This document shows, piece after piece, positions 1-64,000 of a stretch of DNA of 64,000 bases (the first letter of the stretch is position 1; each line of letters opens with the position of its first letter). This stretch comes from Convolutriloba macropyga (lineage: Eukaryota), in contig NC_134473.1 in assembly GCF_964194025.1 (NCBI RefSeq), positions 35,774,001-35,838,000 of the forward strand, given 5' to 3'. A model generated the notes under the pieces. That model was not told where the DNA came from. It searched no databases and saw only the letters and a list, made by a program, of their open reading frames with translations. The position numbers and the translations under genes are program-made.

Positions 1-1350
1 CGCTCCACTAAGAGCGAAAAATGACGTCACACATGCAATTCAGTTGAAATTGCATGAACGAATGAACAAAAAGTGGCTGTGATGTCATATGGTCGTAACA
101 AAAATCATGACGACGAAATAAAAAAACATAGCAGGACAAGTCCTGACGTACAATTCAAAGAATTTTCATTGAATTAACAAACAACTAGACCTAGAACGGA
201 CAATGAGTGAATTGGGAAAACCATTTCTAAAAAAATCAGATGAAAAAAAAACAAAAAAAAAACAGAAAATCAATGTCAAAATGCTGCAAGGGAGAACAAA
301 AAACCACTAACGAGATATGTAATTTCGATTCTAACAAAAAACTAGGTCCAGAATGAGCTGTGAATGGATTGGGAAAACTAATAGTTTTGCCACTCATTAG
401 ACGGAATGCTCAGCACCTCCTTACTTAAGATGTACAGCCGTGAACTGGAGAAAAACATGTAAACTTTGTATGACGTTTTTTATTCATTACGTTATCCATT
501 CTGCTTATTTAAATCACCATATTTTATAAATCAAGGATTTGTCCTCGGTCTGCAGTTTCTTACAAAAATCTTTTGTAATTAGGACTCTGTTCACGCCTCG
601 CTAGACCAAAATAGGTTCCTTCACTTTCTTGCAAACCACAACTTTCTGAAGCTTTTGCACGACCAAAAGCCATCTCTGAATGGATCGTTGTCTAGAATTT
701 AGCCTCTGATTGGATTTTCATGCCATCAACTTTCGCAAGGCTTCTGAATGCATAATAACTTATTCAATTCTGGCTGATAATATGCCGCTGAGGCTTGAAA
801 ACAAAAACATCCTAATTGTCACTAAGAAAATTATGAGAAAAATTAAAGATGTTTAGATCTGACTCGAGATCGTCATCTCAATTACTTCTAAAGGAATAGG
901 ACCAAAATCTTTAAATGGCATTGTTCAAACAACGCATTGTTCAAACACCGTTTCCTCACTCTACTTTTAAATTACAGCGATAAAAATTCACGCCGCAAAA
1001 CCACTCGCTTTTTCGCTCCATTTCCTGTTTCGGCGTGACCAAAATCACCACTCCAATTTGACTTCAAAAATCATGAAAATGTGTGAACAGATCTTAAAAA
1101 AAAAGACAGCGCCCCAATACAATTCAAAATCTTTGAATTGTAAAAAAACCAAGAGAAGGCCAATAATAGCCCCAGCTATCGCTGTGCGGTTATTAATAAC
1201 AAAGCTCGACAAGTAAAAAGCAGCTTAACTTGAGTATATGCATTAAATTAGGTGTCCTATAAACTTCTTATTGAGGCCCTTCACTCATAAATTTTTGTGT
1301 CTGCATTTTGAAGTGAATTTTGATGTTATGATTGCTATATGATATCTTAC

Positions 1351-1458
1351 GCCTGAGTCTCTCCGACTGGCAAAATGTGGCTGGGATTTCAACTTCCTCA
1401 CTCGATTCCTCGTCCTCTTCGTCTTCATGTCGCTGTTCTTCATCTCCCCCGATTTGCT
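1351..1458 (-). CDS. Putative DZIP1-like exon, 108 nt, phase 1-1 (left-hand duplicate copy)
   Basis: cttttcag|AG CAA ATC GGG GGA GAT GAA...CTC AGG C|gtaaga. Encodes (E)QIGGDEEQRHEDEEDEESSEEVEIPATFCQSERLR; phase matches the upstream exon. Confidence 0.5.
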
Positions 1459-3267
1459 CTGAAAAGATTCAACTACTGTTTATTGTATCCTTAGTCAATC
1501 ATCGCTATCGCAACAAAAGTGGCTAACAATCAATGAACAAGCAAGATTGGGTTGCTATGAATAAAGGCGAACGGGCGCAGAGCTAAATGATAAAATGTAA
1601 TTCAGAGCCGAATGCTTAAATTTACCAAATTTAAGCATTCGGTTTTTATTCCCAATTTTGCACATTAATTTAAACGAATCAGGTTGTTCGGCTAGTCAGT
1701 AATTTGACCTAGCAATCTCATTGGTTGAGATTAAAAAATAAAAACGTAAGAATTGATGATTTGATCAGGTTCCGTCACTTGATCATCTATTGCGTGCAGT
1801 CTTTTTGCGGTCGTAGGGGGAGGTTGTGACCGATATACCATCTTTACTACTGTCTTCCTCTCAAGATTGGATTTACCTACCCAACACTCTAGTTGCTTCA
1901 AATGTGTAAGGAAGTGTCAGTTTGGCGCGACTGATAATGCATTTAGCGCTAACTGTTTGCATGAATCGTATGAATTAATTTGAAAAGAAAAAAATCACTG
2001 CATTGATGACATTTTCTAAGTACTAGTTTGTTGGCATTTTGAGCCGAACCAGGTAATCATCAGAGAATCATCAGAGAAGAAAGCCTTAAAAATCATCAGC
2101 TATGGAGTACAATGCAGAGGGCCCTCACTGAACATTGCAGCCCTTATGTTCTTTCTTCTAGACAATGACCGGGTTATATATTAATTAAAGATCGATTTTT
2201 TGGCGTTGATCGGATGAATTGCCCGAAAACAAACCGTAAAATACAGCTTGACTAAACTTGATAAAAAATAAATACTAAAAGAATATATAGCTATAAGACA
2301 CTAATAGTTTTGCCACTCATTAGACGGAATGCTCAGCACCTCCTTACTTAAGATGTACAGCCGTGAACTGGAGAAAAACCTGTAAACTTTGTATGACGTT
2401 TTTTATTCATTACGTTATCCATTCTGCTTATTTAACTCACCATATTTTATAAATCAAGGATTTGTCCTCGGTCTGCAGTTTCTTACAAAAATCTTTTGTA
2501 ATTAGGACTCTGTTCATGCCTCGCTAGACCAAAATAGGTTCCTTCACTTTCTTGCAAACCACAACTTTCTGAAGCTTTTGCACGACCAAAAGCCATCTCT
2601 GAATGGATCGTTGTCTAGAATTTAGCCTCTGATTGGATTTTCGTGCGATCAACTTTCGCAAGGCTTCTGAATGCATAATAACTTATTCAATTCTGGCTGA
2701 TAATATGCCGCTTGAAAACAAAAACATCCTAATTGTCAGTAACAAAATTATGAGAAAAATTAAAGATGTTTAGATCTGACTCGAGATCGTCATCTCAATT
2801 ACTTCTAAAGGAATAGGACCAAAATCTTTAAATGCCATTGTTCAAACACCGCATTGTTCAAACACCGTTTTCTCACTCTACTTTTAAATTAGAGCGATAA
2901 AAATTCACGCCGCAAAACCACTCGCTTTTTCACTCCATTTCCCGTTTCGGCGTGACCAAAATCACCACTCCAATTTGACTTCAAAAATCATGAAAATGTG
3001 TGAACAGATCTTAAAAAAAAAGACAGCGACCCAATACAATTCAAATTCTTTGAATTGTAAAAAAACCAAGAGAAGGCCAATAATAGCCCCAGCTATCGCT
3101 GTGCGGCTATTAATAACAAAGCTCGACAAGTAAAAAGCAGCTTAACTTGAGTATATGCATTAAATTAGGTGTCCTATAAACTTCTTATTGAGGTCCTTCA
3201 CTCATAAATTTTTGTGTCTGCATTTTGAAGTGAATTTTGATGTTATGATTGCTATATGATATCTTAC

Positions 3268-3375
3268 GCCTGAGTCTCTCCGACTGGCTGAATGTGGCTG
3301 GGATTTCAACTTCCTCACTCGATTCCTCGTCCTCTTCGTCTTCATGTCGCTGTTCTTCATCTCCCCCGCTTTGCT
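3268..3375 (-). CDS. Putative DZIP1-like exon 7, 108 nt, phase 1-1
   Basis: Same exon in the next repeat unit, (E)QSGGDEEQRHEDEEDEESSEEVEIPATFSQSERLR. Canonical cag/gtaaga sites, phase-compatible with the donor at 4969. Confidence 0.55.
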
Positions 3376-4968
3376 CTGAAAAGATTCAACTACTGTTTAT
3401 TGTATCCTTAGTCAATCATCGCTATCGCAACAAAAGTGGTTAACAATCAATGAACAAGCAAGATTGGGTTGCTATGAATAAAGGCGAACGGGCGCAGAGC
3501 TAAATGATAAAATGTAATTCAGAGCCGAATGCTTAAATTTACCAAATTTAAGCATTCGGTTTTTATTCCCAATTTTGCACATTAATTTAAACGAATCAGG
3601 TTGTTCGGCTAGTCAGTAATTTGACCGAGCAATCTCATTGGTTGAGATTAAAAAATAAAAACGTAAGAATTGATGATTTGATCAGGTTCCGTCGCTTGAT
3701 CATCTATTGCGTGCAGTCTTTTTGCGGTCGTAGGGGGAGGTTGCGACCGATAGACCATCTTTACTACTGTCTTCCTCTCAAGATTGGATTTACCTACCCA
3801 ACACTCTAGTTGCGTCAAATGTGTAAGGAAGTGTCAGTTTGGCGTGACTGATAATGCATTTAGCGCTAACTGTTTGCATGAATCGTATGAATTAATTTGA
3901 AAAGAAAAAAGTCACTGCATTGATGACATTTTCTAAGTACTAGTTTGTTGGCATTTTGAGCCGAACCAGGTAATCATCAGAGAATCATCAGAGAAGAAAG
4001 CCTTAAAAATCATCAGCTATGGAGTACAATGCAGAGGGCCCTCACTGAACATTGCAGCCCTTATGTTCTTTCTTCTAGACAATGACCGGGTTATATATTA
4101 ATTAAAGATCGATTTTTTGGCGTTGATCGGATGAATTGCCCGAAAACAAACCGTAAAATACAGCTTGACTAAACTTGATAAAAAATAAATACTAAAAGAA
4201 TATATAGCTATAAGACACTAATAGTTTTGCCACTCATTAGACGGAATGCTCAGCACCTCCTTACTTAAGATGTACAGCCGTGAACTGGAGAAAAACCTGT
4301 AAACTTTGTATGACGTTTTTTATTCATTACGTTATCCATTCTGCTTATTTAACTCACCATATTTTATAAATCAAGGATTTGTCCTCGGTCTGCAGTTTCT
4401 TACAAAAATCTTTTGTAATTAGGACTCTGTTCATGCCTCGCTAGACCAAAATAGGTTCCTTCACTTTCTTGCAAACCACAACTTTCTGAAGCTTTTGCAC
4501 GACCAAAAGCCATCTCTGAATGGATCGTTGTCTAGAATTTAGCCTCTGATTGGATTTTCGTGCGATCAACTTTCGCAAGGCTTCTGAATGCATAATAACT
4601 TATTCAATTCTGGCTGATAATATGCCGCTGAGGCTTGAAAACAAAAACATCCTAATTGTCACTAAGAAAAATATGAGAAAAATTAAAGATGTTTAGATCT
4701 GACTCGAGATCGTCATCTCGATTACTTCTAAAGGAATAGGACCAATTTCTTTAACTGGCAGTGTTTCAGGTAAAATGTAGTTTAAAAATGTCTGATGAAA
4801 GACTAAACAGCCGATCATCAAATTTGTGTAAAACATCAACACACAATTCGTGAACAAAAATAGCATGGGTAACAACAATAATGATGGTACAAATTGAAAA
4901 AAGGCGAATGATTGATCAGAACACTAAAAGGAATGATGGGAAACAGATTGAACAGATGATGTTCCTAC

Positions 4969-5358
4969 CGTTAAAATTAACCCGCTTTCGCTTCCTACCA
5001 CTAGCAACCGAAGCTCTCAGTTGACCTGAATAGACGACTTTCTGGTCATGAGATGCTAATCTAGGTCTATGAGTCGATCTGTACCAGTCAACCAACTCGC
5101 TCATTCTTTGAGAGTCCTTCTCTGTTTTACACCCCGTTTGATGATCTTTGGTGACCTTTAGAGAACCATTGGGGTATCTCAGGTCGGCCCCGTTTTGGTC
5201 GGGTGACGACAACCGAGAGCTTTTAGGGTTTTGTGTCTTTTGAGCTGAGGGTCTTGACTTGACTGTTGTAGTTGGGGCGTTTAGAGTTGCTTTTGCATAA
5301 TGGAACTGATCATTATTGTCATTATTGTGTTCACATTCAATTACAGGACAAACTTGAA
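4969..5358 (-). CDS. DZIP1: DZIP1-like exon 6 (low-complexity C-terminal region)
   Basis: ttattttag|TT CAA GTT TGT (phase 1, fits exon 5). Open frame within ORF 4916..5398. Donor AAC G|gtagga; the 3' end is less certain. Confidence 0.65.
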
Positions 5359-5733
5359 CTAAAATAAGTTTGCATGTGGTGTGCTGCAAAATTTTCATTA
5401 AAAAACAATTAATTGGTTTGTTGAGATTTTCATTTATAATCCATTTTGTAATAAAAGAGAACTCATTGCTGTAAATTTTCTTAAGTTAAATAAAATGAAT
5501 TGCTCAAGACTTCATTGTTCTCAAAAATTTGTAATTATTATGTAAAATTACTACCTCTTTTGCATAAAATAGAGGTCATTTATAATTAAAAATTTTCACA
5601 AATCAAGCAAAAAACAGCAATTCATGGCAAACAAACCACTTCTAAAAAATCTGATTACTTTTGATGATTGAAAACCAATTATATAATAACGGAATGATAA
5701 CTGATATGATAACTGAACACCAATTATGCTTAC

Positions 5734-6088
5734 CTGATGAACTTCCAAATGGCTCTACTTCATCAGCAAAATCAGCCTGGTCAAAACCTTCAACTGCCGA
5801 CGTTAAAACCATCCGATCTTTATCCACACTAACTGCTTGCAGATCCGTCACCTGATCCTCTTCCATATTTCGGTCCAAAACCTTTTCGGAACCTTTCTGG
5901 ATCTGCTTTGGAGTTTTCGGAGTCGACTGTTTAGGAAGTGAACGCTGCTTGTTCGGTTGCTTTCCTTTTGCAGTTGTTCTCCTCCTAGTTCCGTCCAATT
6001 CATTTTCAACCACTTCAACACGAGTGGAGTTTTGCAGTCGTTCCAGAAGAAGTCTTTGCGACTCGTTTTCAACTTCTAACTTTCTCAG
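5734..6088 (-). CDS. DZIP1: DZIP1-like exon 5
   Basis: ctttttag|CTG AGA AAG (LRKLEVENESQRLLLERLQ..., coiled-coil-like), donor TCA G|gtaagc. Phases 0->1 are consistent with neighbours. Confidence 0.75.
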
Positions 6089-22260: not shown

Positions 22261-23398
22261 GTAAAATAATTTTTGAAAATTAAAAACTGGTAGATGCCGA
22301 AAACGACACGAAGAGTCGTGCAATAAAAACCCTTAACTGACCTTACCTATTTCAGTAATATCAAAAACAAAAGGAAAAAGCAATATAGTTAGAAACAATC
22401 AACCGTTATTTCAGAATGTGGGTAGGTGGGCTAAGTATGTTGGGTGACGGGGAGTGGAAAGGTAGGCGAGGTGTAGACAGCGGGCAGATAGGTAGGTGGT
22501 TAGGGGGTAGGTGGGTAGGGGATTGGTGGATAGGGGGTTGGCGTGTGTGTATGTGGGGGGGGGGGGGTAAGGACGTGCAACGGGTTGATGAGGGGTAGAT
22601 AGTGGGTTAAAGGTATGGGGGCAATTGACTTGATAGTTAGGTGATTGATCTGTAGTTTAGACAGCTACATGGGACATTCATGGGATCCAAATTCTGGAAG
22701 TGACTTTTTCGCCATGAATAATACCAGCAAATCCTAATTACTTTACACAACAAATTTGGCTTCTGTTAAAGTCCAAAGTTAGAAAACAGAAGTCAACGTT
22801 CAAACACAGTTAAATCTCTGAAAAGAAAGAGATAATGAACAAATCAGCTGAAAAAAACCTGTCTAATATAAATAATCCTCTTCGACTCGTAAACAAGACC
22901 AACACGTTTCATGCATTTCACTTATGGACACAGCTTGAGCTAATCGGTTAGAACCTGTGGATAAGAGTACAGTCTGAAAATTCTATTCTCAGGAAATAGG
23001 GCAGTTTTTTTCAAAACTGTTTCAGATAGTACAAACCAAATTTCAAAAGCCAGTCCTTTACATCTCAGAAATTTGCAAAAATTCATGCTATCTACGGCTA
23101 CCTGAGCTGTATACGATCTTATTAGCGAAACAGCTGTGCTGCTCAATTCCTCGATTGGAGTGAACAATTAATCACAAAACAGATATCACAGAACAAAAAC
23201 CAAAGCAAAAAATTATTGGCCAATGTCAAGTTCAATTTCAAACTTTTCAGAACCACCATTCATACCATGAATTTGTCTCCTCAACAGTTTCTGAGAATCG
23301 CATACTAAGAGACTAGTAAGAGGCAACGTTGCTCAGCAACTTAATGCACTACGGGCTTTACTTGTTTATCCCGTTTCTGAGGTCAAAAAGTTAAATGG

Positions 23399-23521
23399 TC
23401 AGACGAAAAAACGATCAGACGAAAAAACGATCAGACGAAAAAACGATCAGACGAAAAAACGATCAGACGAAAAAACGATCAGACGAAAAAACCATCACAC
23501 GAAAAAACGATCAGACGAAAA
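23399..23521. repeat. 16-bp minisatellite (TCAGACGAAAAAACGA)x~7.5
   Basis: Head-to-tail units, no spacers. The unit resembles the GGTCAGACGAAAAATCG core motif of family-1 elements. Confidence 0.95.
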
Positions 23522-23718
23522 GTTGGTAGTACCAAAAACATCAGAACTAAGAATTGCTACGAACTTCGGTTGAGAGCAATTTAAAAATGCATGAGAACTA
23601 TATCACAATTTTTCTTATCCGTGCGCACACATAAAGACACATTATACTTAGGGAAATTAACTTAAAACTGCTCACAGAAGCTCAGTGTTCCGCTCAAGAG
23701 TGTTAACTCTGCCCCTAC

Positions 23719-26177: not shown

Positions 26178-26417
26178 TCTCCTGCTTTTGCTTAGTTCCT
26201 CTGTAAGATGCTATTCCGGCACTGTGACTATGCGCTTAGTTATTAGGACACTAAGTTATCGGTGCAGATACCTTCGAAAGCGAGTCATGTAAACTTTCGG
26301 TTTCATACAAGTTTTATCGAAGCAATTGAACTAAAGTACGCAGGGATAAGAAAGTAAACGTCAATATATCAGGCAGATGACATTTACAAAAAAATTTTCA
26401 GCCCTCAAAATACAAGC

Positions 26418-26563
26418 ATTGTCATAGTAACTTTCACATTTAACATAGTAACTTTCACATTTACCCTAGTAACTTTCACATTTACCATAGTAACTTTCAC
26501 ATTTACCCTAGTAACTTTCACATTTACCATAGTAACTTTCACATTTACCATAGTAACTTTCAC
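26418..26563. repeat. 21-bp minisatellite (TTTCACATTTACCATAGTAAC)x~7
   Basis: Direct tandem units with period 21, each carrying an X-box-like 14-mer. Confidence 0.95.
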
Positions 26564-27860
26564 CTTCAAATCATGAAACTATACCTCTTCAGCCGTTTCA
26601 GTGAAACTGAACAACAAAAACTCATACTAAAGTTGTAAAACCGAAACCAAAGTATAATGCTTAGACTTGGGGGGAAAAGCCGCAAATATTTCAAAAGTAG
26701 CAGCAGCATCCTCAAATTTTGCCAACTTCCAAAAGGCTGTTAAAATTTTTGTTGCTTTCAATAACTAGTAGCATGTTTGTAAGTAACTGTAAGCTGGAAT
26801 CAGCTAAAAGAGAACTAAAAAATTTGCGTGAAAGCATAAGTTCGCACAATTTTAACATAAATCTGGCTTGGGAATGCCATGCATGTTGTACATAAGTATC
26901 TTTCAAAGTTGCTTAGTATCAGCTGATAGCTGTAATTCACAAAAACGACATCCATCTCGGATAGTCAAAGCTGAAAAACTCTGAATATCAATAAAGGATA
27001 ACTTTTGATCAGGGAAAACAAGGAAACAATAACAAAGAAATGGAGAACATAAACCGACTAACAACTTTACTTCTAGGTGAGAGCAATTGATATCACTCAA
27101 AAATGAAGTAATTGTTTCAAAGCGTCGTCCGGGAGCAAATAAAAACAATTCATCTAAATAATGGCGGATGAGAAAACCGAAAAAAAAACATTAAGCATTT
27201 CAAATTGTTCAAAAGGTATTGTCTATGCGAATTCTGCTTCTTTTCACTTTCCTCTTTTGAAATTCCTGAGTCTTCCATAGTGTAAATATTGCGAAGAAAG
27301 TGATGTCAGACGTGTCAATTGATATACAATGTATAAGTCCAACGTGCAAACTCATAAAAAGTTGAACAGTAGCAAGCGACACGCAGAGGATCGCATAAAA
27401 ACTAATATATATCTGAAAACATTGGGTACGAAAAACACGCAATAAAAGGCGAATAAGGACAAAATGACGGTAGAAGGTAGAGCGATGAGAGTACAGAGAC
27501 ACAATGAAAAGAGAAAAAGACAAACAGCAAGACAGACAGACAAAGAAAAAAGTAAAGAGATTGTGGGTAAGTGTATCTGCGTGCCTATGTGTATGCAAGG
27601 GTGTGTGTTTTGTCCGTGATGCGTGTATGTGGCAGAAACGTGTTCATACATGCAAAATCCTCTGGTATTTGGCAATGATTTTTTCATTCTATACTTCCCA
27701 ATTCCCAGTCGAGGAGGGTAAAAAACTAAACATACTCGACTAACGTCGGAAGAATTGCTCCCCAACGACTACTGGGAGCTCGAATCTATTGCAAACTGCT
27801 TCAGTCGGTGGAATAACTAAATTCACTTCAGGAGGCTTCAAACAACGTGGTTTTTAAATA

Positions 27861-29346
27861 CCAATATAACCACGAATAAAAATTAAAGTAAAAAAATTAC
27901 CAAGTTTTGTCGCACTTTTCATTTGACTCTTGGTAGTAAGCTGCCGCCACCGGAGTTCAACTCTTGATTCTTGTGAATGCGAGACAAAATTTAGACCACG
28001 CAAAACAAAAAAAAATCAAGTGCCGAAAAGTCACTCGAAAAATCAAAACAGTCAAGCAAAAATTTTGCATCGAAAAGACCAACACGTTAACAATTATTGC
28101 CTCAACCTTGGTCCGCGAGCAATCAGATTTAATACACCGGAATTTTTCCTTTTTGAGAGCAAAGATATAACAGCCCCCAGCATCAACTTTATTCCTTTGG
28201 GTCTATCTGATGCGTCCCATTGCTGAGAACCAAAACTCCGATTTGTCAAAGAAAATCCAAATAAAAAAGAGCATCAAAATACCAGCAGTACCAAGAGCTC
28301 AAATACATGTTTCACCTTTCTTTTAAGAAAAACAAACGAACGAAAAACTAATCGCCAGAAAAAAATTTGAATTAGAGGAGAGGGAAAGAAAAGAGAGCGC
28401 GGAGAGAAAGACCGAAAAAAAAGAAGCTATTAATTAGTGACAAGAGTGCGGTAGAGATAGAGGTAAAGTAACAGGCAAAAGAGATTAAGGCAAGGATGTA
28501 AGAAGGCAGGGAGCAAAAAAGGGACAACACGAACGATGACTGCCGCCAACAGAAACAACTGCGGGGCAATTATATTCACAGGCTATACCCCCGATACATA
28601 TTTTCATGGATGAAAAACAACTCCGACCATGGAGGGATTCGAACCCTCCCCACCTACAGAATTTTCAACAGAAGCATCAATCACTCAGCTATCAGGCCCC
28701 TAAATTGCCTGTTTAATAATCACTTTGAATTTAGCACCAAACTTTACTTCAGGGAGAGAGAGAGATCAATTGAGATAACTGAAAAAAGAGGAGCATGGTG
28801 GAAAAAGTCACTTGGAAGTCAAATGATGTTTTAGAACAAAAGCTCAAAAACGGTCAAGCGACAATTTTGCAAAGAAACACAGCAATTCACAATAAAAGCC
28901 TCAAACTTCGTTCGAGAGCAATTAATTAGAAGGCAATGAAACGAGAAAACGGACCAATAACATGATACAATCTAAATCATACAAACTAAAAAACAAAACA
29001 TGTACGAAGACATTAAGAAAAAGAGTAACACAGAACTAAGAGAAAAGGAAACAGAAAAAGTTTAATAAATGTTAAAAAAAAACAAACAGAAATAAAGGGT
29101 AGGAAAAGTCACTTGGAAGTCAAGTAATGTTTTAGAACAAAAGCTCAACAACGGTCAAGCGACAATTTTGCATAAACACAGGAGTTGACAATAAATGCCT
29201 CGACCTTCGTTCGAGGAGCAATTATTTGGAAGAAATGAAACGAGAGAATTTTATTATATATATATATATATATATATAAAATGTACCAATATACCAAACC
29301 TTCGTTCGAGAGCAATTAATTCGAAAGAAATGAAACGAGAGAATTT

Positions 29347-29393
<47 letters not shown>

Positions 29394-30600
29394 ACCAATA
29401 TACCAATATATTCCAATATGACCACGAAAAAAAATTAAAGTAAAAAATTAACCAAGTTTTGTAGCACTTTTCATTTAACCTTTGGCAGTACGCTGCCGCC
29501 ACCGAAAATCAACTCTTGATACCTGTGAATGCGAGACAAAATTTAGACCATGCAAAACAAAAAAAAATCAACTGCGGAAAAGTCACGCCAAAAATCATAA
29601 CAGTCAAGCAAAAATTTTGCATTGAAAAGACCAAAACGTTAACAATTATTGTCTCAACCTTGGTCCGCGAGCAATTAGACATATTACACCGATTTTGTTC
29701 TTTAGAGACCAAAGATATAACAGCATCCAGCATCAATTTTTGCTCCTTTGGGTCTATCTGATGCGTCCCATTGCTGAGAATCAAAAATCCAATTTGTCAA
29801 AGAAAATCCAAATAAAAAAGAGCATCAAAATACCAGCAGTACCAAGAACTCAATAAAACATGATTTACCTTTCTTTTAAGAAAAACCAACGAATGAAAAA
29901 CAAATAGCCAGAAAATTTGAATTAGAGGAGAGGGGAAGAAAAGAGAGCGCGGAGAGAAAGACCGAAAAAAAGAAGCTATTAATTAGTGACAAGAGTGCGG
30001 TAGAGATAGAGGTAAAGTAACAGGCAAAAGAGATTAAGGCAAGGATGTAAGAAGGCAGGGAGCAAAAAAAGGACAACACGAACGGCGACTGCCGCCAACA
30101 GAAACAACTGCGGGGCAATTATATTCACAGGCTATAGCCCCGATACATATTTTCATGGATGAAAAACAACTCCGACCATGGAGGGATTCGAACCCTCCCC
30201 ACCTACAGAATTTTCAACAGAAGCATCAATCACTCATCTATCAGGCCCCTCAATTGCCTGTCTAATAATCACTTTGAATTTAGCACCAAACTTTACTTCG
30301 GGGAGAGAGAGAGCAATTGAGATAACTGAAAAATGAAGAGCATGGTGGAAAAAGTCACTTGGAAGTCAAATGATGTTTTAGAACAAAAGCTCAAAAACGG
30401 TCAAGCGACTATTTTGCAAAGAAACACATCAATTCACAATAAAAGCCTCAAACTTCGTTCGAGAGCAATTAATTAGAAGGCAATGAAACGAGAAAACGGA
30501 CCGATAACATGATACAATCTAAATGATAAAAACTAAAAAACAAAACATGTACGAAGACATTAAGAAAAAGAGTAACACAGAACTGAGAGGAAACAGAAAA
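27861..30600. repeat. Direct duplication of ~1.2 kb (27861-29059 / 29413-30600) of composite repeat DNA, separated by (TA)n tracts
   Basis: Long near-identical blocks, e.g. 28372-28800 vs 29920-30350. (TA)n at ~29255 and ~29352. Confidence 0.9.
28621..28700 (-). repeat. tRNA-derived Pol III promoter-like segment (copy at 30171-30249)
   Basis: Minus strand GGGGCCTGATAGCTGAGTGA (A-box-like)...GGAGGGTTCGAATCCCTCC (T-arm/B box). Not a complete tRNA. Confidence 0.6.
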
Positions 30601-52448: not shown

Positions 52449-53394
52449 AGAGACAAAAATAGACACAAAAATGACAAAAATGAGCTTGCAATGCAGCAAA
52501 AATTATTTTAAAAAAAACTAAATTGATCAAAAGCAAAAATTATTAGACCGCTTAGAGATTTCTTTACAATTACTTTTCTCGCTCTCTATCTGCAAAGAAA
52601 CTTTGTCGCTCTCCTCTCTGATTCAGTTTGATCGAATTTAGATTAAACTCATTGTTTTCACGTGCATCATTCACTGTCACGTCACCCATTGAAAAAATGG
52701 CTAGCAGATTACTAGGAAAAGTGCGAAAGCTATGGATATCTGTAGCCTGAAAATACCAATGAAAACAAGAGACCGAAAAAGAGAATTTTTTTCAAATTAA
52801 TTTTGTTACATCTTTGATTAAATGTATGTACTGCCAAATTTTCTCCCGAAAACCCTCACTTAGAATGAGATAAACTGACTTTAAATTATCTCACTAAAAA
52901 AGCAAAGTCATTTTCAGAGAGGATAAAGTTAATTAAGAGAAATGAATCACGAGTGTGAAAAAAACTCGATCCAAAAAGCGTGAAAATTTACATCACGCAC
53001 GCAATTAATTAACGAGAACATGGATGAACAAATGCATGAGCAAGCAAAAATGATACGAAACGAGCATGAGGTCGTAACATGAGTCGACAACCAAACATAG
53101 CCGGAAACGTCCTGGTCTAATATTCTAGAATTTGAATTGACTAAACAAAAAAATTAAGAAAGGACAAGGAATGAATTTGGCAAAACATCTAATGCAAGCC
53201 GATACAAAACCGATTGGAACAAATTCAATACAGGTCAAATTTCGGAACGTGATGAAAAACACGAGAAAGCAAACTTTTGTTCAAGAAACGTTTTCTCGGC
53301 CTAAATGATTGCACTCCACAAAAACACGTGATTTCTTGCTTCAATTCCTGTTTCGGTTAACACAGCAAATAAACCCAAAAAATTAAAAAAAAAC

Positions 53395-54094
53395 TGTATA
53401 CTAGAGGGTATGGGTTGCGAAGGTTCAAACTTCTGACTCGATGGTCGTACTCCTAGTATATGCTATCTTTCTAAGCCTGATAAGTCGCATAAAAGTATTT
53501 ATTGATCTAAGTAAGTAAATTTGACTAATTGATCTAGTTATAAGTTTTATATAATCTTTATAAAAATCTAACATTGATAAATTTACAAGTAATGTTATGA
53601 GGTTATAAGAGTTAAAAACTTAAAGTTATAAAAGTTAACTTATAAAAAGGAGAAGGTCGGGAAAGTTAGTAAGAACTTTACTAACTTGAATTATTATCAG
53701 TAACTATTTATCCTTTATTGAATAAAGTTCTGATTTGTATAATATCTCCAACTATTCGTTATTCGATATAGTTGAGAAAAGGTTTGGCAATTCAGATCTG
53801 AATTAGTTTTATTGGAGATTACTTTCTCAATTTGGAGATATTAAATTCTCAGTTTCTCTGAGTTGTTAATTCTTAATTGCTCAAAGTTGTGCTTTTTGCT
53901 TTGCTATATATAGTCTTCAGAACGGGATAATTCCCGTCCTGCTGGCTGGACGGTAAAATGTCCGTTTGACTGAACGGACATTTTACGCAAAATGAATGGT
54001 TCAGTTAATTGCATCATTCTATTTTTAGAATGATGTAATTTGAATACTTAGCTTAGTTAAGCTAAGTATTCAACATAAGCATTACTTTAGTACA
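53395..54094 (-). repeat. 3' LTR (700 bp)
   Basis: TGTA...TACA termini. By eye ~14 substitutions and 2 indels versus 62593-63289. TATA-like CTATATATAG at 53904-53913; minus-strand AATAAA at ~53714. Confidence 0.95.
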
Positions 54095-54192: not shown

Positions 54193-54837
54193 TTAGAATA
54201 TAAAAATGTTTTGGTGGCTCTCCTCCGGGCTACAGGTTGGAGAAATGGCGCGGAAGTCGCCATTACGATAGTCACGTAGTTCTCGCAGCAGGCTGTCGTT
54301 GCGCTGCTGGAGTTGAAAGTTTTTGTATCTTTCTCTCAGAAAACTCTGCTCGAGGTTACGGATGTAACTGTCTTCAGAGTTTTCTAAATTAGCGGTGAGA
54401 AGGTAGAACGGGACTGACAAAATTTGTTTGTCAATCACTAGGTTCTTTGCGCGATAAGTTTTAGTTTTGGGGTTTTAGGACACGAGTTTATACAAGTTAG
54501 CATGGTTCTGGAGCTTTTACTTCAAGCTCATGTCATACTTCGGGTGTCCTTTGAAGCTGGGGTTACATACAAGCTGCTTTGTCTTCATTTGTCGATGAAT
54601 CTTGTCTTGTATTGTTAGTGGTTTGGGCAGGACTGCTGCCCCTGGTGGTTGCGATGGTCCTGGTTGTTGGGGTTGTTCCGCTAGTTGTTGGGTGGTTTGT
54701 TGTTCACGCAATTGTGGTTCCACGGTTGTCAGTAGATATTGTTGTACAATGTCGGTAGGGAGTTTCAATGGAGGCTGGTCTTCTAAGAGTTCCTCAAATG
54801 CTGGTAGAAGAAAGTCGTTGTCATCTAGTGCTATGTT
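54193..54837 (-). CDS. Two candidate accessory ORFs of the retroelement (acidic + Q/P-rich 54517-54837; coiled-coil-like 54193-54438)
   Basis: Open frames between env and the 3' LTR. The first opens exactly after a ttcttctag acceptor-like site. No recognisable homology. Confidence 0.35.
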
Positions 54838-54885: not shown

Positions 54886-55960
54886 TTACACTGGAGAGGT
54901 GGGAAAATCATCATTGCTAGATTGATTTTCTCTCTCTTGTCTAATTGCCTGTAGCTCACTTTGTATAGGAGGGTATATGTTAATAGTCGGCTTTTTATAA
55001 GTTGGGGCTTGTACTAAACGTTCTGAGTCGCCTCTTTCTTCGATAGGACGAAATACCGAAGTCACTATGGACTGGAAAAGTATATTAAAAGTGGCTGATA
55101 GTATTACTTTTCCAAAACTCACTGAAGCTCCTGTAATTTTATGTATTTGTAGTGCCCGAATGATGCAAACTACAATGTCGATTATGAATTTCACAAAAAG
55201 GAATAGAGCGAAAGTAATTCCGCATTGCTCCAAATAATAGTGTACTCGGCCGAAGGCTTTTATATACCGGTTGTGTAAGAATTGTGACGAGATTAGACAA
55301 TCTAAATATATTGTTTTTGTAGTGTAGTAGTTGCTATAACCACTAGGCTGGCTTTTATTATGTTGAATCTCAACTAATTCACGAGAAACCTCTTGCGCTG
55401 CGTCTTTCATTTCGGTATTCAAAGTTACATCGTTCCAAAATGCAATCATGTCTTCTTTGACATGAAAAGAAACTTCCTGTCCGTTTTTAAATTTCATTTA
55501 AACCATTTTGTGTTTCTGATTGCTGGGTGCAAATATTGCTGGCCCAGTGAATTGTGTTATACTTGGAGTTAATTCGATCCAAGAGTTATCATTTTCAATA
55601 TCTAGTTGAAAAAAATTCTTTTGTTTGTTGTTACATGGTTGTTGTTCAGCAGTAGTAAAAGTTTGTCTGCTAACCGGATCGATAAAGCGAGCTTTATTTT
55701 TATATAACACAGGTATCCTATTATAACAAGTATCCATTACTTGTAAAGGCGAATAAAATTTTGGACTCTGATAGAGCCAGGATATATTGCCGTTTGTCTC
55801 TAGAAACATAGATCTGTTATTTGTTAACAGAAAACCAGCCAGCTTAGGGCTGAGACGCGAATATGCAAGTTGTGTATTTTTAAGTGAACGTTCTAGTTCA
55901 CAAATTTGCTGTATAGTATTTATTTCAGAGAGTTGTAGCCTTCGGAAATTAGTGTACTGA
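54886..55960 (-). pseudogene. env: env-like glycoprotein, C-terminal part (chuvirus G / herpes gB-like class III fusogen family)
   Basis: ICELERSLKNTQLAYSRLSPKLAG...GNISWLY...CYNRIPVLYKNKARFIDPVSR...C, then a hydrophobic anchor GITFALFLFVKFIIDIVVCII. One in-frame stop at 55498-55500; N-terminus missing. Confidence 0.75.
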
Positions 55961-55989
55961 TAATAGTCAAATTTATAATAATAGTCAAA

Positions 55990-58900
55990 ACTATGATAAT
56001 AATCATCATAGTTAGTACTATAGTCCTGTACTAACTTGTCTATTTCTTGTTCTTTAGGAAAGTATTCTACTAAGTGATTTCTATGCACTACTTTCTTTTG
56101 TTCAGTCGAGTCATGAACAATTTCATACGTAGTGTTAGTTATTTGTTTAGTAACAGTATAGAGTCCAGAGCGTAACTCTAGTAGCTTTTTGGATTTCAAT
56201 AATCCTTTAGCGTGATTCTCTAGTAAAACTTTACGACCGATTTTGATTGGTTTACCCAAATTAAATCTATTCCTATACTCGTGTGCTTTGTTTGTAATTA
56301 GCCGACGGCGAGTATATGTTTTACTATACATATTTTTGAATTCGTTCTCGCCTTGTAGTATAGTACTAGACAACCGATATTGTAACAGTTTATCTACCTT
56401 CTCGTTTTTACAAGAGTTTTCACAGTGAGTGTCTAAGTGAAGGTCTTTACAATACTCTGAAATACAATTCCATCTATTGTCCCGTAGTAAGCCAAGCTTA
56501 AGGGAAATTGGAATTTGTGGTTTAATACCGAATATTATCTCGTACGGAGTATATCATGTACTGTAATTTATTGCAGTATTATGCGCAAAGGCAAATTTAT
56601 TAGTAAGGCTAGCCCAGTTCGATCCGGTGTCGTTAATAAAACTGCGCAAATAATTTGCTAAGTTTTTATTTTGTACTTCAACCTTGCCATTTGTACAAGG
56701 TGAGTATGAGGTCCGTGGTTTTAATGTAATTCCGAATTCGTGCGTCCAGTGCACAAAATCATTACTCAAAAATGCAGTACCATTGTCATGTACTATTTGT
56801 TGAGGGATCCCGAATCGTGCTATGTATTTTTCTAATAATTTAACAGTTTCTGGTGCATCAGCGGTTTTTGATGGATACACTTGTATAAAACGAGAAACTA
56901 TCTACTATAACTAGACAAAATTTCTTTTGGTTACTGCAAGGTCTAAATGGGCCTTTTTGGTCTATGTGTATAGTATGAAATGGGGTTGTTTCTAATTCAC
57001 CCCACTGTTCTAGGGGTGCTTTGTTCAGATCATGTCTTTGTGGTTTATTCTTTTGGCAATCAAGGCAGTAATGTACTAGCATGGTAATCCATTTGTACAT
57101 TCCGGGCCAATGAAAGAATCTACTGATGTTGTTAAATGTACATGTGTCTCCACGATGTCCACTTAGCGGATTATTATGTGCTAACTCAAAAAGCATTTCA
57201 TAAATAATGATAGTGGAACACATATTTTTCTGTCATATAGACCGTTCTCGTCTGGTTTATTGTAACATAGCAAGTCATACTGCTCCTCAAGTAGTAGCAG
57301 GTTAAATATATTCTTTTATGCACGTAGACCTTTACAATGTTTAATTGTACTTGTGCTCGGCGGTTCTTTGCCTGCTTTTAGCCATTGGCGAACGGCTTGT
57401 AAAACGGGATCATTTATTTGTTCGCGCAGAATTGTATCTGTGTCTAGTTGAGATTGTTTAGTAAACTCTGTTAATTTTAGTAGTAAGTCTTTACAAGATA
57501 CTTTAACTACTTCTGTATGTAGAGTTGTCGGTTCCACAATGTCATACCTGTGCGTGCGTTGCTTGTATTCCTCCTTCGCTTGTTCTAGTTCTTGTATTAA
57601 GGATATATCTACATTTCCTTTTAGCAATTCTAACCAGTCTTCATCGTCAAGACCGTCGTCTACTGCATGTACCTCTTCGGGTATTTCTTCATATGTGTGG
57701 TCGTTAAGGCTTTCTGTAGATACATTTTCCGAAGACATTTTTCTGATTTGATTTATTTGTCGTCCATATCTGAACGAGTCGGCAATATTGTATATTGCAC
57801 TACATGTCTGTTCTATATCGTCACTTGCGTCGTTAATACTAAAATCCTCGTCGGTTATATTTAGTATTTTCTTTTTCTTTCCGTGTATATGTGCAATTAC
57901 CGGATAGCTAGTATTTGGGGGTGCTTTTTTTTCGTCACAGTGTAGTATTGAATTATTTATCGGTTTGTAATCCGATGTGTAGAAGCGAATGTCCTTTGGT
58001 CCTGTTTTGTGTTTAATTTGGAACTTTCTCGCTTCTTGTGGGACTGGTCTACTAGGTTAGTCGGGGAACGCAAGGTTTTTACCTTCAGTGTATATTATCT
58101 TTAGATTCTGAAATTTAGTAAGCACAACATGATACTTAAAGAATCTATTTGATAATTGTCCGCGGCGAGACTAGAGGAACAATATAGGTCTGTGATCGCA
58201 AAATAGATATATTGGATAGGGGGAGCCTATAATGTAGAACTCGTAAGTTTGTAATGCTGATATTATTCCGCACAGTTCTCTATGCTGTGGGGACATTTTC
58301 TGTTCTGCTTTATCGAATACACGGGAGTTTGCAGAAACAATTCGTTTCCCTTCGGGAAAATGTTGTATCAATATACTACCAGTTCCTAAGTTGGAGGAGT
58401 CAGCATGTATATGAAAGGGATATATTGGGTTGGGAATAGCGGCGGAAATATCGTGTGAAAATTTTGCTTTCAGTCTATCGAATACTTGCTGGTGGCTATC
58501 CAGCCATTCGAAATTCGTTTCATTCTTGACTAAGTCAAATAGCAGTTTTGCGTCAATATGATAGTTTGTAACATAATTTGCATAAAATCCCATTGCCCCT
58601 AATACGCTGAGGACGTCGGTTTTCGATTCTGGCGTTTTCAAGTTTTGTATATCGAGAATGCGTTAAGTGATTGGGCTAAGTGTCTCTTTCGATGTTACAT
58701 GCCCGAGGAATTTCACTTTTCGTAAGAATTTTGTTTTATCCGGCGCAGCTTTTAAGTTTGCTTTACGCAGTAGTGCACTATATTCACGTATTACTGTGAA
58801 CATTTCTTGTTTATCTTGTGCTTGTTGTAGTGTATCGTCAATATAAGTAATAGCTTGCTTTTTCTCTATAAGCGGTCCAAATGCACAACGCATAAGTTTA

Positions 58901-61100
58901 CTAAAGAAGTTCGGAAGGGACTTTAAGCCGTAAAATCCGACTTGATAGGTATATTGACGTCCACCTACAATAAAACTAGTTAATTTCTGAGTTTCTTCTG
59001 TAAGGGGCACTTGATGATAAGCGCACGACAAATCACTACTTGTAAAATATGCTCCATTTACTCGGGTCATCAAAACTCGTAGTGGCTCGAGCGGCCAGCT
59101 CGAGTTCCTTGTATCCGTAATTGAGTTGAGGTAGCAAGCATCGATTGCAAGTTTTACATAGTCGTTCTTAGGCAATATAATAATTGGGTTTACAAACCAG
59201 CTATTTAAATCGTCGTGCTCATTTAGCTCGCGTATTATTCCGGCTTGTATTAATTCGTCCATTAACGCTTCTAACTTTTCACGCAAATGTAGAGGAACTT
59301 TGCTTGGACGTTGCTTTTTAAATTCGCAATCTTTCTTAAGGGGTATATGAAATTTCCGTTTCGTGCGGCTGATATTATACTTATGATGGGAGTATACATC
59401 CTCATCATCTAGTAGAACTTTTAGAAGCACCCTGAATTCGTCGTCCGTTAAATCACTCTGTGTGAAATCAAACTTTTTAAGGTACTCGATATAGTGTGTA
59501 TAGTTCTTACTTGCATCTTTGGTTCGTGTATCGAGTCCTTCTTGAACAACTTCATGAATGATGAAGTGGTTTTGTTCAGTTGTTATGAACTTGGGGAATT
59601 GTTCAGTATTATTGGGCTTGCATAATGTTTTTGCATCATTTGAGAAATCAGTTGCTACTTCAGCATCACTTTTGCATTTGTTCACAATTTTATCGCCTAC
59701 AATTTCAAATATCTCTTCGATGCTTTCATCTGTGTATTGTGCATAGGACGGCATTTGATTAATTTCGGCTTTACTCACATACACATATATTTTAATTCCC
59801 CAAGAATTAAATACATTATATAGCAATGCAGATATCTCAGACCAATCCATTTTGTCTAATCCACATGCATTTTTAGGCATAGCCATGCATCTAATGTTCT
59901 GCATTAGAAGTATGGTGCGAAGTTCGAATAGTGCAGTTGTAATACTTTCAATTGTCGGTTTACTATTATATTTTTCTTTAGTTATTAGACAAACGATTTG
60001 GTGTCCGAGCCTAGGAGCAATGTATTGTATTACATTTTGGTTTATTGTACTTCCGTCACGATCGTTCACTTCTACTTGCCATTTACAATGTTCTCCCAAG
60101 ACGTGGAACTTTTTACACAATATGAGTGCAAAGCCTTTGCTCATAGTGCAGTCCTTAGAAACTGTGTGTATAATAGCCATACTACTATTAAAAATTGACT
60201 GTTCTTCCTGGTTAATATAATTCATGCAAATATCAGACTCGTTCGACTCAGCCTCTTGTACTCAGTTAACAACTGTACTAAGCATAAAACAATTATCGAG
60301 TTCTTCATACTTATTTAATATTGAGTATGCGAACTCACTACAATCACGCATGTTGAATTTGCGCGTATCACGACTTAATACTAGATCACAAACAGCGTAC
60401 CCAATAATACCTTTATTAAGTGTAATAAGGTGATTCTTGTGGTTTTCTATTAGTACAGGTAGTGTTTTCTCTTTTTGTGTACAGACTGTGTTAATAAACT
60501 GTGTTTTTGTGCGGTAGAAAAAAGTGACTTTGCGGTAACATAAATCAGTATTTGGTGTTTGTACAAATAGGTTGATCTTGCCTGTATATAAAGTGGCTGG
60601 AACAAGATTATTGCTTCTAATTCTGATACTTGTGGATACTGTTTTTCATTATTCAGTGTTCTATAACTGATTACTCCTGTGTGTTCTTTCAATTCTACAG
60701 CAGGAATATCGAAATACAGAGCTTTAAAGAAAATATGACAGAAATCAACACCAATCAGGTTAGATGTTCCTTCTTGTGTAATCCATACTTTATAGTTTGT
60801 TCATACTTTCCGTCAGTGTCAAAGTATGCTGTTACTGTAGTATTGCCTAACATACGAATTTGTGATCCATTATAGGATTTTGTGATATTTATTGCTGAAA
60901 AAATCCTCATGCTAGGGTTCAATTTTTGCATTTCTAAAAATGTGGGGTAATTTATTATCGTACACGTCGAGCCTGCGTCGATTAAGCATTCAATTTCTAA
61001 TCCACTATTCTTATTTATGTCTCCGGTGGTGAAATAGTACATATTTAGGTAAATCCTAGATTTTGGATTACTATTTGTACTAACTTTCGGAGACTTTTTA
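55990..61100 (-). pseudogene. pol: pol polyprotein (disrupted)
   Basis: PR CLIDAGSTCTII (~60990). RT SDLSCAYHQVPL/YGLKSLP/YIDD (59340-58663). RNase H HADSS...RELCG...CDHRPI (58641-58171). IN HNNPLSGH...CLDC, IHID, HDNGTAF, NGKVE (57223-56554). GPY/F-like RSGLYTV (~56160). Confidence 0.93.
59776..60225 (-). CDS. TARG1/OARD1 (Poa1p/DarG-like) macrodomain within pol, in frame with RT
   Basis: AIIHTVSKDCTMSKGFALILCKKF...CLITKEKYNSKPT...MAMPKNACGLDKMDWSEI...VF....IKIYVY. Compare human TARG1 [24 protein letters not shown]...YLITKKRASHKPT...LSMPRIGCGLDRLQWENV...VF....IKITVY. Confidence 0.9.
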
Positions 61101-61172
61101 AAGGAAAGAAATCTGTGATAGCATCGGTGTAATTATTTTGCTCATAGTATTCTGTTTGTTGGTTTTGATCAT

Positions 61173-62511
61173 CTACCCAGTGGACAGAGTGGGACGAGCG
61201 GGGTTGTTGATTATGATAATTACTACTTGATGCCTGAAATTGATTGAAGTGCGATTGGGGGGATAAGAACGTTGAAAATTTTGATTCTCACGTTCATAAT
61301 ATTGTCTTGCATCAATTTCATGCGGACTAAACTGGTTGTTCTGGGGGAACTTTTGTTCAGAGGATTTATTATAGTTGTTGTTATAGTGTTTATTTCCGTA
61401 CCTCCGATTGTCATATCCACTGTTAGTATTATTTGGACGATTCTGGGTATTGAAATACGGTTTACTGTTAGTCTGTTTTTTGTAGTCAGTACTGAAGGAT
61501 GTCCTTTTCTCCTTTTTCTCAGTGAGTTCTCTTTTCATTTTTTAAAATCCTTCATCAATCCTATGTTTACAGCAGTTAAAAATATTATGCCCATGATTGC
61601 GGCAACAGTTGTAGAAGCGTGTGTTATTCGGTCGTCCTTTTACAGTGGGGTCTTTAAAAGACCCTGAGTTAATAGCGCTAACTTCGTTATTTCTTATTAG
61701 GCTAGTAAGCTCTTTAATTTGTGCTTCAAGACTACTAATTTTATCATTTGTTTGTCTTACTGTGCCGTCGGTGCTAACAGAAAATGTTAAGTCTTTAGTT
61801 ATTAAGTGGTTTTGTATTTCGTCCCATGTTTTATCCGGATTTTCTATCCTATATTCATGCGCTTTGCGTTTTAGTGAGGGGGGTTGTAAACCTCTTATGG
61901 CAAAATCAATATACTTTTGTTCCCTTTGTCTCTGCTGCACTGTTCTTTCAGTGGCAATTTGGCCAGGGTCAGTTAATCGTGCGTGTATTTTTTCAGGCCA
62001 TCCTCTATCAGCAGCATGCTTAATTCGGTGGAAATAATTTTTAATTAGTTCACCTTCTTGTCTGGTGGCACCTTCCACTTCTAGTCGATACTTGAATTGA
62101 TTACGGCTATCAGTGAATCTATTTATGAAATCTCCTTTAATTTGGTCAAGATTTCTTGTGGGATCTATAGTATTGAACCACTCTAATGCGGTATCTGTCA
62201 GTAGTGATCCAAATAGCGCTTTGCGTCTATTTTGGTGATTTGTTAATGCAGTGGGGTCTGTCGGTAACGTTGTACCTAAGGAGAAATTTATTTTTTGTTC
62301 AAGTTTAGTTCCAGAAATCACTTGCATTTTGTCTAGGGTCATTTCCCGAGAAAGTGACAAGTGACATATTAGGATGAGACAGGGGGTATCAATTAATGTT
62401 CTTGTTACTGTAGTAGTGCTGCCTGATCCGGAACTTAAAGTTGTTGTGCCTGTACTTACTACCCGAGCCGGTTGAAGGAGCTGTACTACTCGGCGTTCCT
62501 CCTGAGGACAT
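61173..62511 (-). pseudogene. gag: gag (frameshifted)
   Basis: ATG at 62511 (MSSGGTPSST...). Retrotransposon capsid-like LTDTALEWF...IKGDFINRF...RQEGELIKNY and a degenerate CCHC knuckle (YNCCRNHGHNIFNC). Confidence 0.85.
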
Positions 62512-62574: not shown

Positions 62575-62591
62575 CCCCACTGGTCGCACCA
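62575..62591 (-). other. Primer-binding site
   Basis: Minus strand TGGTGCGACCAGTGGGG, 1 nt after the 5' LTR. The complement ...CCCAC-TGGTCGC-A-CCA looks like a tRNA 3' end (Leu-type T-stem; identity uncertain). Confidence 0.7.
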
Positions 62592-62592
62592 G

Positions 62593-63289
62593 TTTATACT
62601 AGAGTGTATGGGTTGCGAAGGTTCAAACTTCTGACTCGATGGTCGTACTCCTAGTATATGCTATCTTTCTAAGCCTGATAAGTCTCATAAAAGTATTTAT
62701 TGATCTAAGTAAGTAAATTTGACTAATTGATCTAGTTATAAGTTTTATATAATCTTTATAAAAATCTAACATTGATAAATTTACAAGTAATGTTATGAGG
62801 TTATAAGAGTTAAAAACTTAAAGTTACAAAAGTTAACTTATAAAAAGGAGAAGGTCGGGAAAGTAAGTAAGAACTTTACTAACTTGAATTATTATCAGTA
62901 ACTATTTATCCTTTATTGAATAAAGTTTTGATTTGTATAATATCTCCAACTATTCGTTATTCGATATAGTTGAGAAAAGGTTTGGCAATTCAGATTTGAA
63001 TTACTTTTATTTGAGATTACTTTCTCAATTTGGAGATATTAAATTCTCAGTTTCTCTGAGTTGTTAATTCTTAATTTCTCAAAGTTGTGCTTCTTGCTTT
63101 GCTATATATAGTCTTCAGAACGGGATATTCCCGTCCTGCTGGCTGGACGGTAAAAGGTCCGTTTGACTGAACGGACATTTTACGCAATATGAATGGTTCA
63201 GTTAATTGCATCATTCTATTTTTAGAATGATGTAATTTGAATACTGTTTAGTTAAGCTAAGTATTCAACATAAGCATTACTTTAGTACA
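62593..63289 (-). repeat. 5' LTR (697 bp)
   Basis: Direct repeat of 53395-54094; the inner terminus is mutated TG->TT on the + strand. Confidence 0.95.
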
Positions 63290-64000
63290 ACTGTCGAAAC
63301 ATCAACTAATAATGAATAACCAAAATAATCACTCAATTTGACTTCAAAAGTTATCAAAATGTGTATTTGCATATTTAATAAAATATAACAGGAAAACCCC
63401 TGAGCTAAAATTCAAAGCAATTCGATGTACAAAACAAATTAAATATGATTAGGAAAGAATTTAAAAACGACACAAACACTCCAAGAAACCAAGAAACTAT
63501 AAAGAAAACAAATCGCCTCTAGTTTGCAAAACCTGTAGATTGTCAGAAAATAGCCACCTTTGACCCCACAGTCTTCCCTTGAGACTGAAACAGCAAGATC
63601 AATCGTGAATTAGATGGTGAATTCAGCCTTTTAATTGGAGGACAGTAAGCTTAATATTTATACAAATCAGCAGTACAGTTTCAGTAATTTTGATAATTTA
63701 TATTTGATAATATAATATCCCGTTTCTTTTGAGTCCGCTTTTTGACCTTCGAGGTAATTGCATATTATTTCTAAGTGAACTTAAATTTCCATTTAATTGG
63801 AAGTGAGAAGTCAAACGTGCAAGTCGTGAGTTTTGTAAAAAAAAATGAGAAAACAGTAAAAACAGAGGTCAAAAAATCACAATGGAGAAAGCGACCGTTT
63901 GTTTAAGAGTTCAACAACTTTTTTCTCTGTACATTAAAATAAGAACCGCAAAACCATTCGCTTTTTCGCTCCACTTCCTGTTCCGGGACAAAAATCATGG

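Follow-up and report, generated by a model that had tools for sequence, protein, structure and literature searches.

What is a macrodomain of the ADP-ribosyl hydrolase kind doing inside the Pol polyprotein of a Gypsy retrotransposon? The question is raised by a stretch of 64,000 nucleotides of the Convolutriloba macropyga genome (hereafter the window; contig NC_134473.1, positions 35,774,001 to 35,838,000), for which an initial annotation had proposed a TARG1-type macrodomain between the protease and the reverse transcriptase (RT) of such an element. Retrotransposons carry few accessory enzymes, and those that are retained indicate the threats that the elements face, as dUTPase does for uracil in cDNA.

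The element lies on the minus strand and spans 63289 to 53397. Its 5' LTR (TG...TA; 62595–63289) and 3' LTR (53397–54094) are 97.7% identical over 698 columns, with 13 mismatches and two gaps, and the same four bases stand at both flanks as a target-site duplication (63290–63293 before the 5' LTR, 53393–53396 after the 3' LTR). A primer-binding-site-like stretch (62575–62591), read from the sequence, begins with TGG, three bases inward from the 5' LTR. It is followed by gag (61099–62510), disrupted by a stop and a frameshift, the aspartic protease region of pol (60740–60991), a dUTPase-fold domain (60327–60630; approximate limits, taken from the model of a natural sister copy), the macrodomain (59776–60225), RT with a YIDD motif (58666–59480; PF00078, E = 6e-17), RNase H (58171–58662; PF17919 and PF17917) with a stop at each end of the piece, a frameshifted integrase with zinc finger, core and C-terminal domain (56001–57247), and the 3' part of env (54886–55975), to which an internal deletion, about 2.7 kb long, has joined the end of the integrase. 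The LTRs, the target-site duplication, gag and the order of protease, RT, RNase H and integrase are those of a Ty3/Gypsy LTR retrotransposon. The third ORF encodes a Monjiviricetes-type viral fusion glycoprotein with a membrane anchor (PF24664, E = 1e-15 in the window and 9e-25 in a sister, an intact sister having a 782-codon frame with hydrophobic segments towards both ends), so that the element is indeed env-bearing, as had been suggested. The macrodomain-carrying frame of the window pol contains five stops, with frameshifts on either side; because its decay goes beyond what the similarity of its two LTRs would lead one to expect, this copy is probably a non-autonomous member of its family. 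Between env and the 3' LTR lie two short ORFs (54193–54837), whose counterpart in an intact sister is a frame of 203 codons (L053, near 5350–5957), a possible accessory ORF.

The macrodomain comprises 150 aa and is of the TARG1/OARD1 class, as its sequence matches and the model of a sister copy both indicate. In a phmmer search of PDB with 59776–60225, human TARG1/C6orf130 accounted for the top five of seven matches (E = 1e-16 to 2e-16), the next reaching only E = 0.049, and a profile of nine natural domains matched TARG1 at E = 1e-33 and DarG at E = 1e-13. No match to MacroD was obtained from the macrodomain by sequence or profile search. The NCBIfam DarG antitoxin model, NF048014, matches the window copy (E = 5e-9) far under its whole-protein cut-off; scores are 36–48 bits against a cut-off of 250 and cover only positions 14–147 of 338, so that the domain is not a DarG antitoxin as defined there. 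Pfam Macro gave no match to the window copy and matched a family-B sister with a score just below its cut-off, which may be why such domains slip through routine annotation.

The equivalents of the TARG1 residues Lys84 (in LITK, 59977–59979) and Asp125 (in CGLD, 59854–59856) are aligned with those of TARG1 at a spacing of 41, the same as in the TARG1 catalytic dyad (PMC9411070); the dyad had been reported as retained, and it is found in the window copy and in families A, B and G alike. The equivalents of H-x-x-S-x-D and of G123 are also kept. The element domain thus resembles human TARG1 (PDB 4J5R, 4J5S and 2LGR), the best match by both sequence and fold at about 30% identity, but differs in being part of a retrotransposon Pol and not a stand-alone cellular enzyme. 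The macrodomain of bacterial DarG (PDB 5M3E and 5M3I; NF048014) belongs to the same class and has the catalytic lysine in common; the element domain, however, is only about 19–20% identical to it and lacks the DarG C-terminal part. The private changes of the window macrodomain, 18 altering an amino acid (one of them in the loop before the aspartate) and six silent, follow a neutral pattern, and this copy's own domain may be inactive.

The reading frame was described by the initial annotation as running from upstream of the macrodomain into RT, and the downstream half of this description is correct, the domain and RT lying in the same frame of ORF 58663–60261 (532 codons, with RT at its end). 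Upstream, the frame does continue past the TGA at 60262–60264, but for 127 codons only, and the window protease is in a different frame; continuity from protease to RT is seen in the single frames of sister copies. The order protease, macrodomain, RT was likewise given correctly, except that the dUTPase-fold domain intervenes after the protease.

Sister copies were sought in the whole genome of 1.18 Gb. Of 840 candidates, 150 gave scored matches, and of these 89 belong to the family of the window copy (family A) and 61 to family B, which is 44–49% identical to the window sequence. Among the matches listed, five A copies with frames of 1868–1870 codons and nine B copies with frames of 1898 codons are stop-free within the match. 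In 14 sister stretches of 10 kb examined for layout, intact copies have a gag ORF of 465–469 aa that overlaps the start of one long Pol, from which expression of Gag-Pol by ribosomal frameshift is inferred. Their Pol runs from protease through a spacer of about 175 aa with the dUTPase fold to the macrodomain, RT, RNase H and integrase, and env comes next; in family B, Pfam matched Retrotrans_gag and, weakly, Asp_protease_2. These intact single Pol frames rule out a nested insertion and bear out the earlier view of the macrodomain as an integral Pol domain. The protease active-site motif in families A and B (L021 and L026, pol aa 53–57) is D-P-G, the usual motif of aspartic proteases being D-T/S-G.

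The spacer and macrodomain of a natural A copy were modelled from an alignment of 29 rows (mean pLDDT 81.5, about 90 across the macrodomain); this model was used instead of an earlier single-sequence fold of the region from protease to macrodomain, with a pLDDT of 36. TARG1 was the first match, with a Foldseek E-value of 8e-12, a TM-score to target of 0.81–0.87, and Z = 19.2 at an rmsd of 3.3 over 147 aligned residues, and DarG was second (Z = 17.7). As modelled, then, the fold is nearest to the TARG1/DarG class, and TARG1 ranks first in fold and profile comparisons alike, in keeping with the TARG1/DarG-type assignment of the initial annotation. Residues 40–141 of the spacer model resemble the dUTPases of EBV (Z = 8.6), EIAV (Z = 8.6) and human (Z = 8.0), a putative dUTPase fold at modest Z with 83–95 residues aligned. 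No Pfam or NCBIfam dUTPase family HMM matched the spacer, and Atlas searches with the region gave unnamed clusters only. This domain (aa 171–272 of the L021 pol) occurs in macro-less relatives too, and is under purifying selection.

Selection on the macrodomain was estimated from 31 A, 40 B and 23 G copies picked from among the best-scoring ones, long frames being favoured and near-duplicates (two A and two B) dropped. Variants present in at least three copies were taken as reflecting replicating sources; as variants are not mutually independent, the p-values of this analysis are approximate. In family A these shared variants comprise two replacements and 17 silent changes in the macrodomain (dN/dS 0.03–0.04) and two and 36 in RT; in family B, six and 11 (0.16–0.19), against six and 32 in RT (0.05–0.07); and in family G, three and 27 (0.03–0.04), against none and 64 in RT, the linker beside the family G macrodomain having 36 and 83 (0.14–0.17). 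Single-copy variants of the family A macrodomain are near neutral (66 replacement, 24 silent), and so provide an internal control against selection bias. The macrodomain is therefore under purifying selection, in family A as strongly as RT (about 0.04) and in family B more weakly than RT; the expectation that intact sisters would carry a domain that does not evolve neutrally was borne out. The lysine is present in 28 of 29 A, 38 of 38 B and 23 of 23 G copies, and the aspartate in all copies of each family (29/29, 38/38 and 23/23).

A search with the RT–RNase H region returned 105 Pols, the 32 closest being 43–85% identical. Nine of these 32 carry the domain in the same slot, 14 span the slot without it and nine begin too far downstream to show whether they have it; since 14 close relatives cross the slot without the domain, it is accessory and not required for replication. 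The distance from spacer to RT is 265–292 aa with the macrodomain versus 92–112 aa in the nearest four Pols without it. The longer gap of P0176 was considered as another insert and proved to be a duplicated piece of RT. In an RT tree built by quick search from 57 rows, none of them a named reference errantivirus sequence, 12 macro-bearing Pols and one truncated Pol form a clade (support 96), with a sister clade of five Pols lacking the domain. Because the macrodomain tree of the window's clade branches much like the RT tree and the sister clade has no domain, one gain at the base of the subclade followed by vertical descent is indicated. On these alignments and trees, the macrodomain is a discrete insert gained once in the window's RT subclade.

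The genome also harbours a second Gypsy lineage, distant from that of the window (families C–G), whose Pol of 1826–1938 aa carries a TARG1-class domain at its very C-terminus, with an env-sized ORF downstream in some copies (locus G000 C15:32948714-32954192, L049; families D–G, L068–L083). Its domain is under purifying selection in family G and degenerate in family E. Word-indexed searches with the domain found seven near-identical relatives in one case and none in another, and when 1.84 billion representatives were searched with a profile, 8077 proteins matched at E ≤ 0.001. Retroelement domains are contained in 11 of the 63 longer matches scanned among the best 150 of these 8077. In the matches listed, the macrodomain stands before the protease (P0050), between RNase H and integrase (P0028 of Athalia rosae and P0072 of Harmonia axyridis, both named 'uncharacterized' at NCBI, as well as P0031 and P0135), after the integrase zinc finger (P0064, P0151 and P0152, partial proteins), after the integrase (P0096 and P0066) or after a chromodomain (P0146). 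These database Pols were read as proteins, with host and env status known where NCBI names them. NCBI files P0031 under a Brevinema MAG, yet by its RT it clusters with the Gypsy Pols of insects, and it probably stems from host DNA that was placed in a bacterial bin.

Chromodomains steer chromoviruses, and a macrodomain could likewise act as a reader of ADP-ribosylated chromatin or repair sites, steering the pre-integration complex there or recruiting repair at the integration gap. The far C-terminal position in the second lineage and in P0096 and P0066, the placement directly after the chromodomain in P0146, and the persistence of the fold without the full dyad in some subfamilies would suit such a role. 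In the window's lineage, however, the macrodomain precedes RT, away from the integrase, and the lysine is retained in 30 of 30 retroelement macrodomains and the aspartate in 25 of 30, which is more than binding alone needs. We therefore regard a reader as unlikely.

The retention of the lysine in all of these domains but of the aspartate in only 25 fits DarG, which has a catalytic lysine without a dyad (PMC9411070). Further pocket residues are lost, and the fold kept, in P0173, P0179, P0180 and family E. This loss of the aspartate or pocket in subfamilies, together with a degenerate second copy in insect Pols, indicates that the fold can persist without the enzyme in some subfamilies. One might then suppose that the domain is a passenger or structural spacer, captured and retained only because Pol processing needs it folded. 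Such a supposition would agree with the sister clade that lacks the domain, with the degenerate forms seen in several subfamilies and in the bridge region of insect Pols, and with the similar selection on the neighbouring dUTPase-fold domain. Yet active-site residues beyond the core ones are invariant across families only about 30% identical, the domain recurs at several different positions, and it has been kept although the sister clades show that clean deletion is possible, all of which makes a mere passenger very unlikely.

The degenerate copies just mentioned lie directly before the integrase zinc finger in P0028 (895–1048), P0031 (650–787) and P0072 (590–736), each time as a second macro-like domain; in P0228 (765–912) it is the only one. 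The profile of these degenerate domains, whose rows were initially chosen by a weak macro score, matched the macro profile at 97.9% and that of RNase H at 0.09%. When 84 bridges between RNase H and integrase were scored, P0228 alone reached 96.9%, and the best of 81 bridges without a macrodomain 4.5%; in P0221, whose RT falls within the clade of the insect macro-bearers, the bridge did not match the macro profile (0.24%). Atlas searches with the degenerate bridge yielded no match. A survey of errantiviruses (PMC13524379) places domains that it terms 'pseudo' RNase H in the interval that separates RNase H from integrase. The macro-like domains of the insect Pols here occupy that slot, and the degenerate macro-like domain may be part of what the survey describes.

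Trees of the retroelement domains join lineages I and II with a support of 75, and uniting all 27 retroelement rows is not rejected (p-AU 0.06); a macrodomain tree of 156 rows, in which the labels 'cellular' and 'prokaryotic' are guesses from fused domains, mostly lacks firm branching. The retroelement macrodomains as a whole may go back either to one old gain with shuffling or to several gains. We tentatively put forward, as a possibility well short of an even chance, that TARG1-class erasers form an accessory module that recurs among the Gypsy/errantivirus Pols of animals, gained or moved several times because ADP-ribosylation of retroelement cDNA would be a widespread, undescribed restriction, and that the insect 'pseudo-RNase H' bridge is partly a degenerate macrodomain.

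The host genome itself has an OARD1-like gene, the single top-scoring one outside any Pol (L156:1333-1980; G000 C2:20366620), with its domain in one frame, the lysine and aspartate retained, and a basic C-terminal tail. It is 30% identical to the window domain and 23–41% to the element domains, which do not group with it in the tree, so that a recent capture from this gene is unsupported. With such a gene in the host, a private copy is less necessary, unless the compartment matters.

PARP-family domains are expected in any animal, and 19 matches to them were found in the host genome, three lying within 41 kb as a local cluster (G000 C7:32903583-32944232); these 19 matches do not discriminate among the functional readings. 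RNA-virus macrodomains counter interferon-induced PARPs, and in positive-strand RNA viruses (alphavirus nsP3, coronavirus Mac1) the macro fold lies inside the replicase polyprotein, as it lies inside Pol here. Their counter-ADP-ribosylation role serves as the model for functional inference on the element, and by analogy its domain could be a dedicated counter-defence against an antiviral-type mono-ADP-ribosyltransferase that marks Gag, Pol or element RNA. The virus-like, env-bearing nature of the element, the recurrence of the domain in unrelated Gypsy lineages, and the clustering of some host PARP-domain matches on one contig would agree with this. However, no such enzyme was identified among the host's PARP-domain matches, selection is plainly purifying with no excess of amino-acid change, and the class is that of TARG1/DarG, unlike the MacroD-like domains of most RNA viruses, including those of alphaviruses and coronaviruses, which score lower against the model (Z = 11–13, 9–14% identity). 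A dedicated defence of this kind thus seems quite unlikely, and general DNA-damage PARPs acting on cDNA that is nicked or single-stranded would account for the domain equally well. Of the interpretation originally offered for the locus, the TARG1-class fold, its integral place in Pol, the env, the selection and the catalytic residues of sister copies stand; hydrolase activity, packaging, substrate and a dedicated host PARP/ART pathway are predictions.

The reading that we prefer, at a probability of roughly 0.6, is that the Pol macrodomain is an active, packaged ADP-ribosyl hydrolase that clears PARP-made ADP-ribose from the cDNA, RNA or proteins of the element. Made as part of Gag-Pol by frameshifting, the macrodomain would enter the particle, where the element protease would free it or leave it on the N-terminus of RT. 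It would accompany RT and integrase, enzymes that yield DNA with nicks, gaps and single-stranded parts, and its most likely substrates would be ADP-ribose adducts on the DNA of reverse transcription and integration, laid down by general DNA-damage PARPs and not by a dedicated anti-transposon enzyme. An eraser within the particle would keep the cDNA clean. TARG1 needs Lys84 to strip thymidine-linked ADP-ribose and to rescue DarT toxicity (PMC8501950), and it removes the ADP-ribose that PARP1 places on DNA at Okazaki fragments not yet ligated and at overhangs of single-stranded DNA (PMC11102865). That a TARG1-class eraser is kept, under selection like that on RT, by two Gypsy lineages far apart within a single genome, and is present in insect and other Gypsy Pols, points to ADP-ribosylation of intermediates of reverse transcription or integration as a threat; if so, ADP-ribosylation would be an overlooked brake on jumping genes. 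The macro-bearing and macro-less sister clades and the naturally degenerate subfamilies offer ready comparisons, and DarT rescue in E. coli makes the enzymology approachable with the isolated domain.

Macro-domain ORFs are known from fish epsilon-like endogenous retroviruses (Basta et al. 2009, cited in PMC4977317), which are, like the present element, reverse-transcribing LTR elements with a macro domain. As described in PMC4977317, however, those domains are additional ORFs of Retroviridae, whereas the TARG1-class domain here is fused in frame within a Gypsy Pol. The element shares its LTR-gag-pol-env arrangement and chuvirus-like/gB-type fusion protein with errantiviruses and other envelope-carrying Ty3/gypsy elements, but the survey of these names no macrodomain, its text and seven supplements giving 0 matches to 'macro' as a domain (PMC13524379). 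By word search, PMC13524379, PMC4245714, PMC8120803, PMC10789625 and PMC4695847 gave no mention of a macrodomain in a Gypsy Pol, and none was found in the literature covered, with subscription journals, Repbase reports and CDD lying outside the search. Earlier notice of such a domain in those sources is quite possible.

Elsewhere in the window (377–4765, 27855–30593, 23366–23552 and 26402–26590), units of about 1.92 kb and about 1.55 kb are tandemly duplicated, in three and two copies respectively, and there are also minisatellites of 16 and 21 bp and several dispersed families of short repeats.
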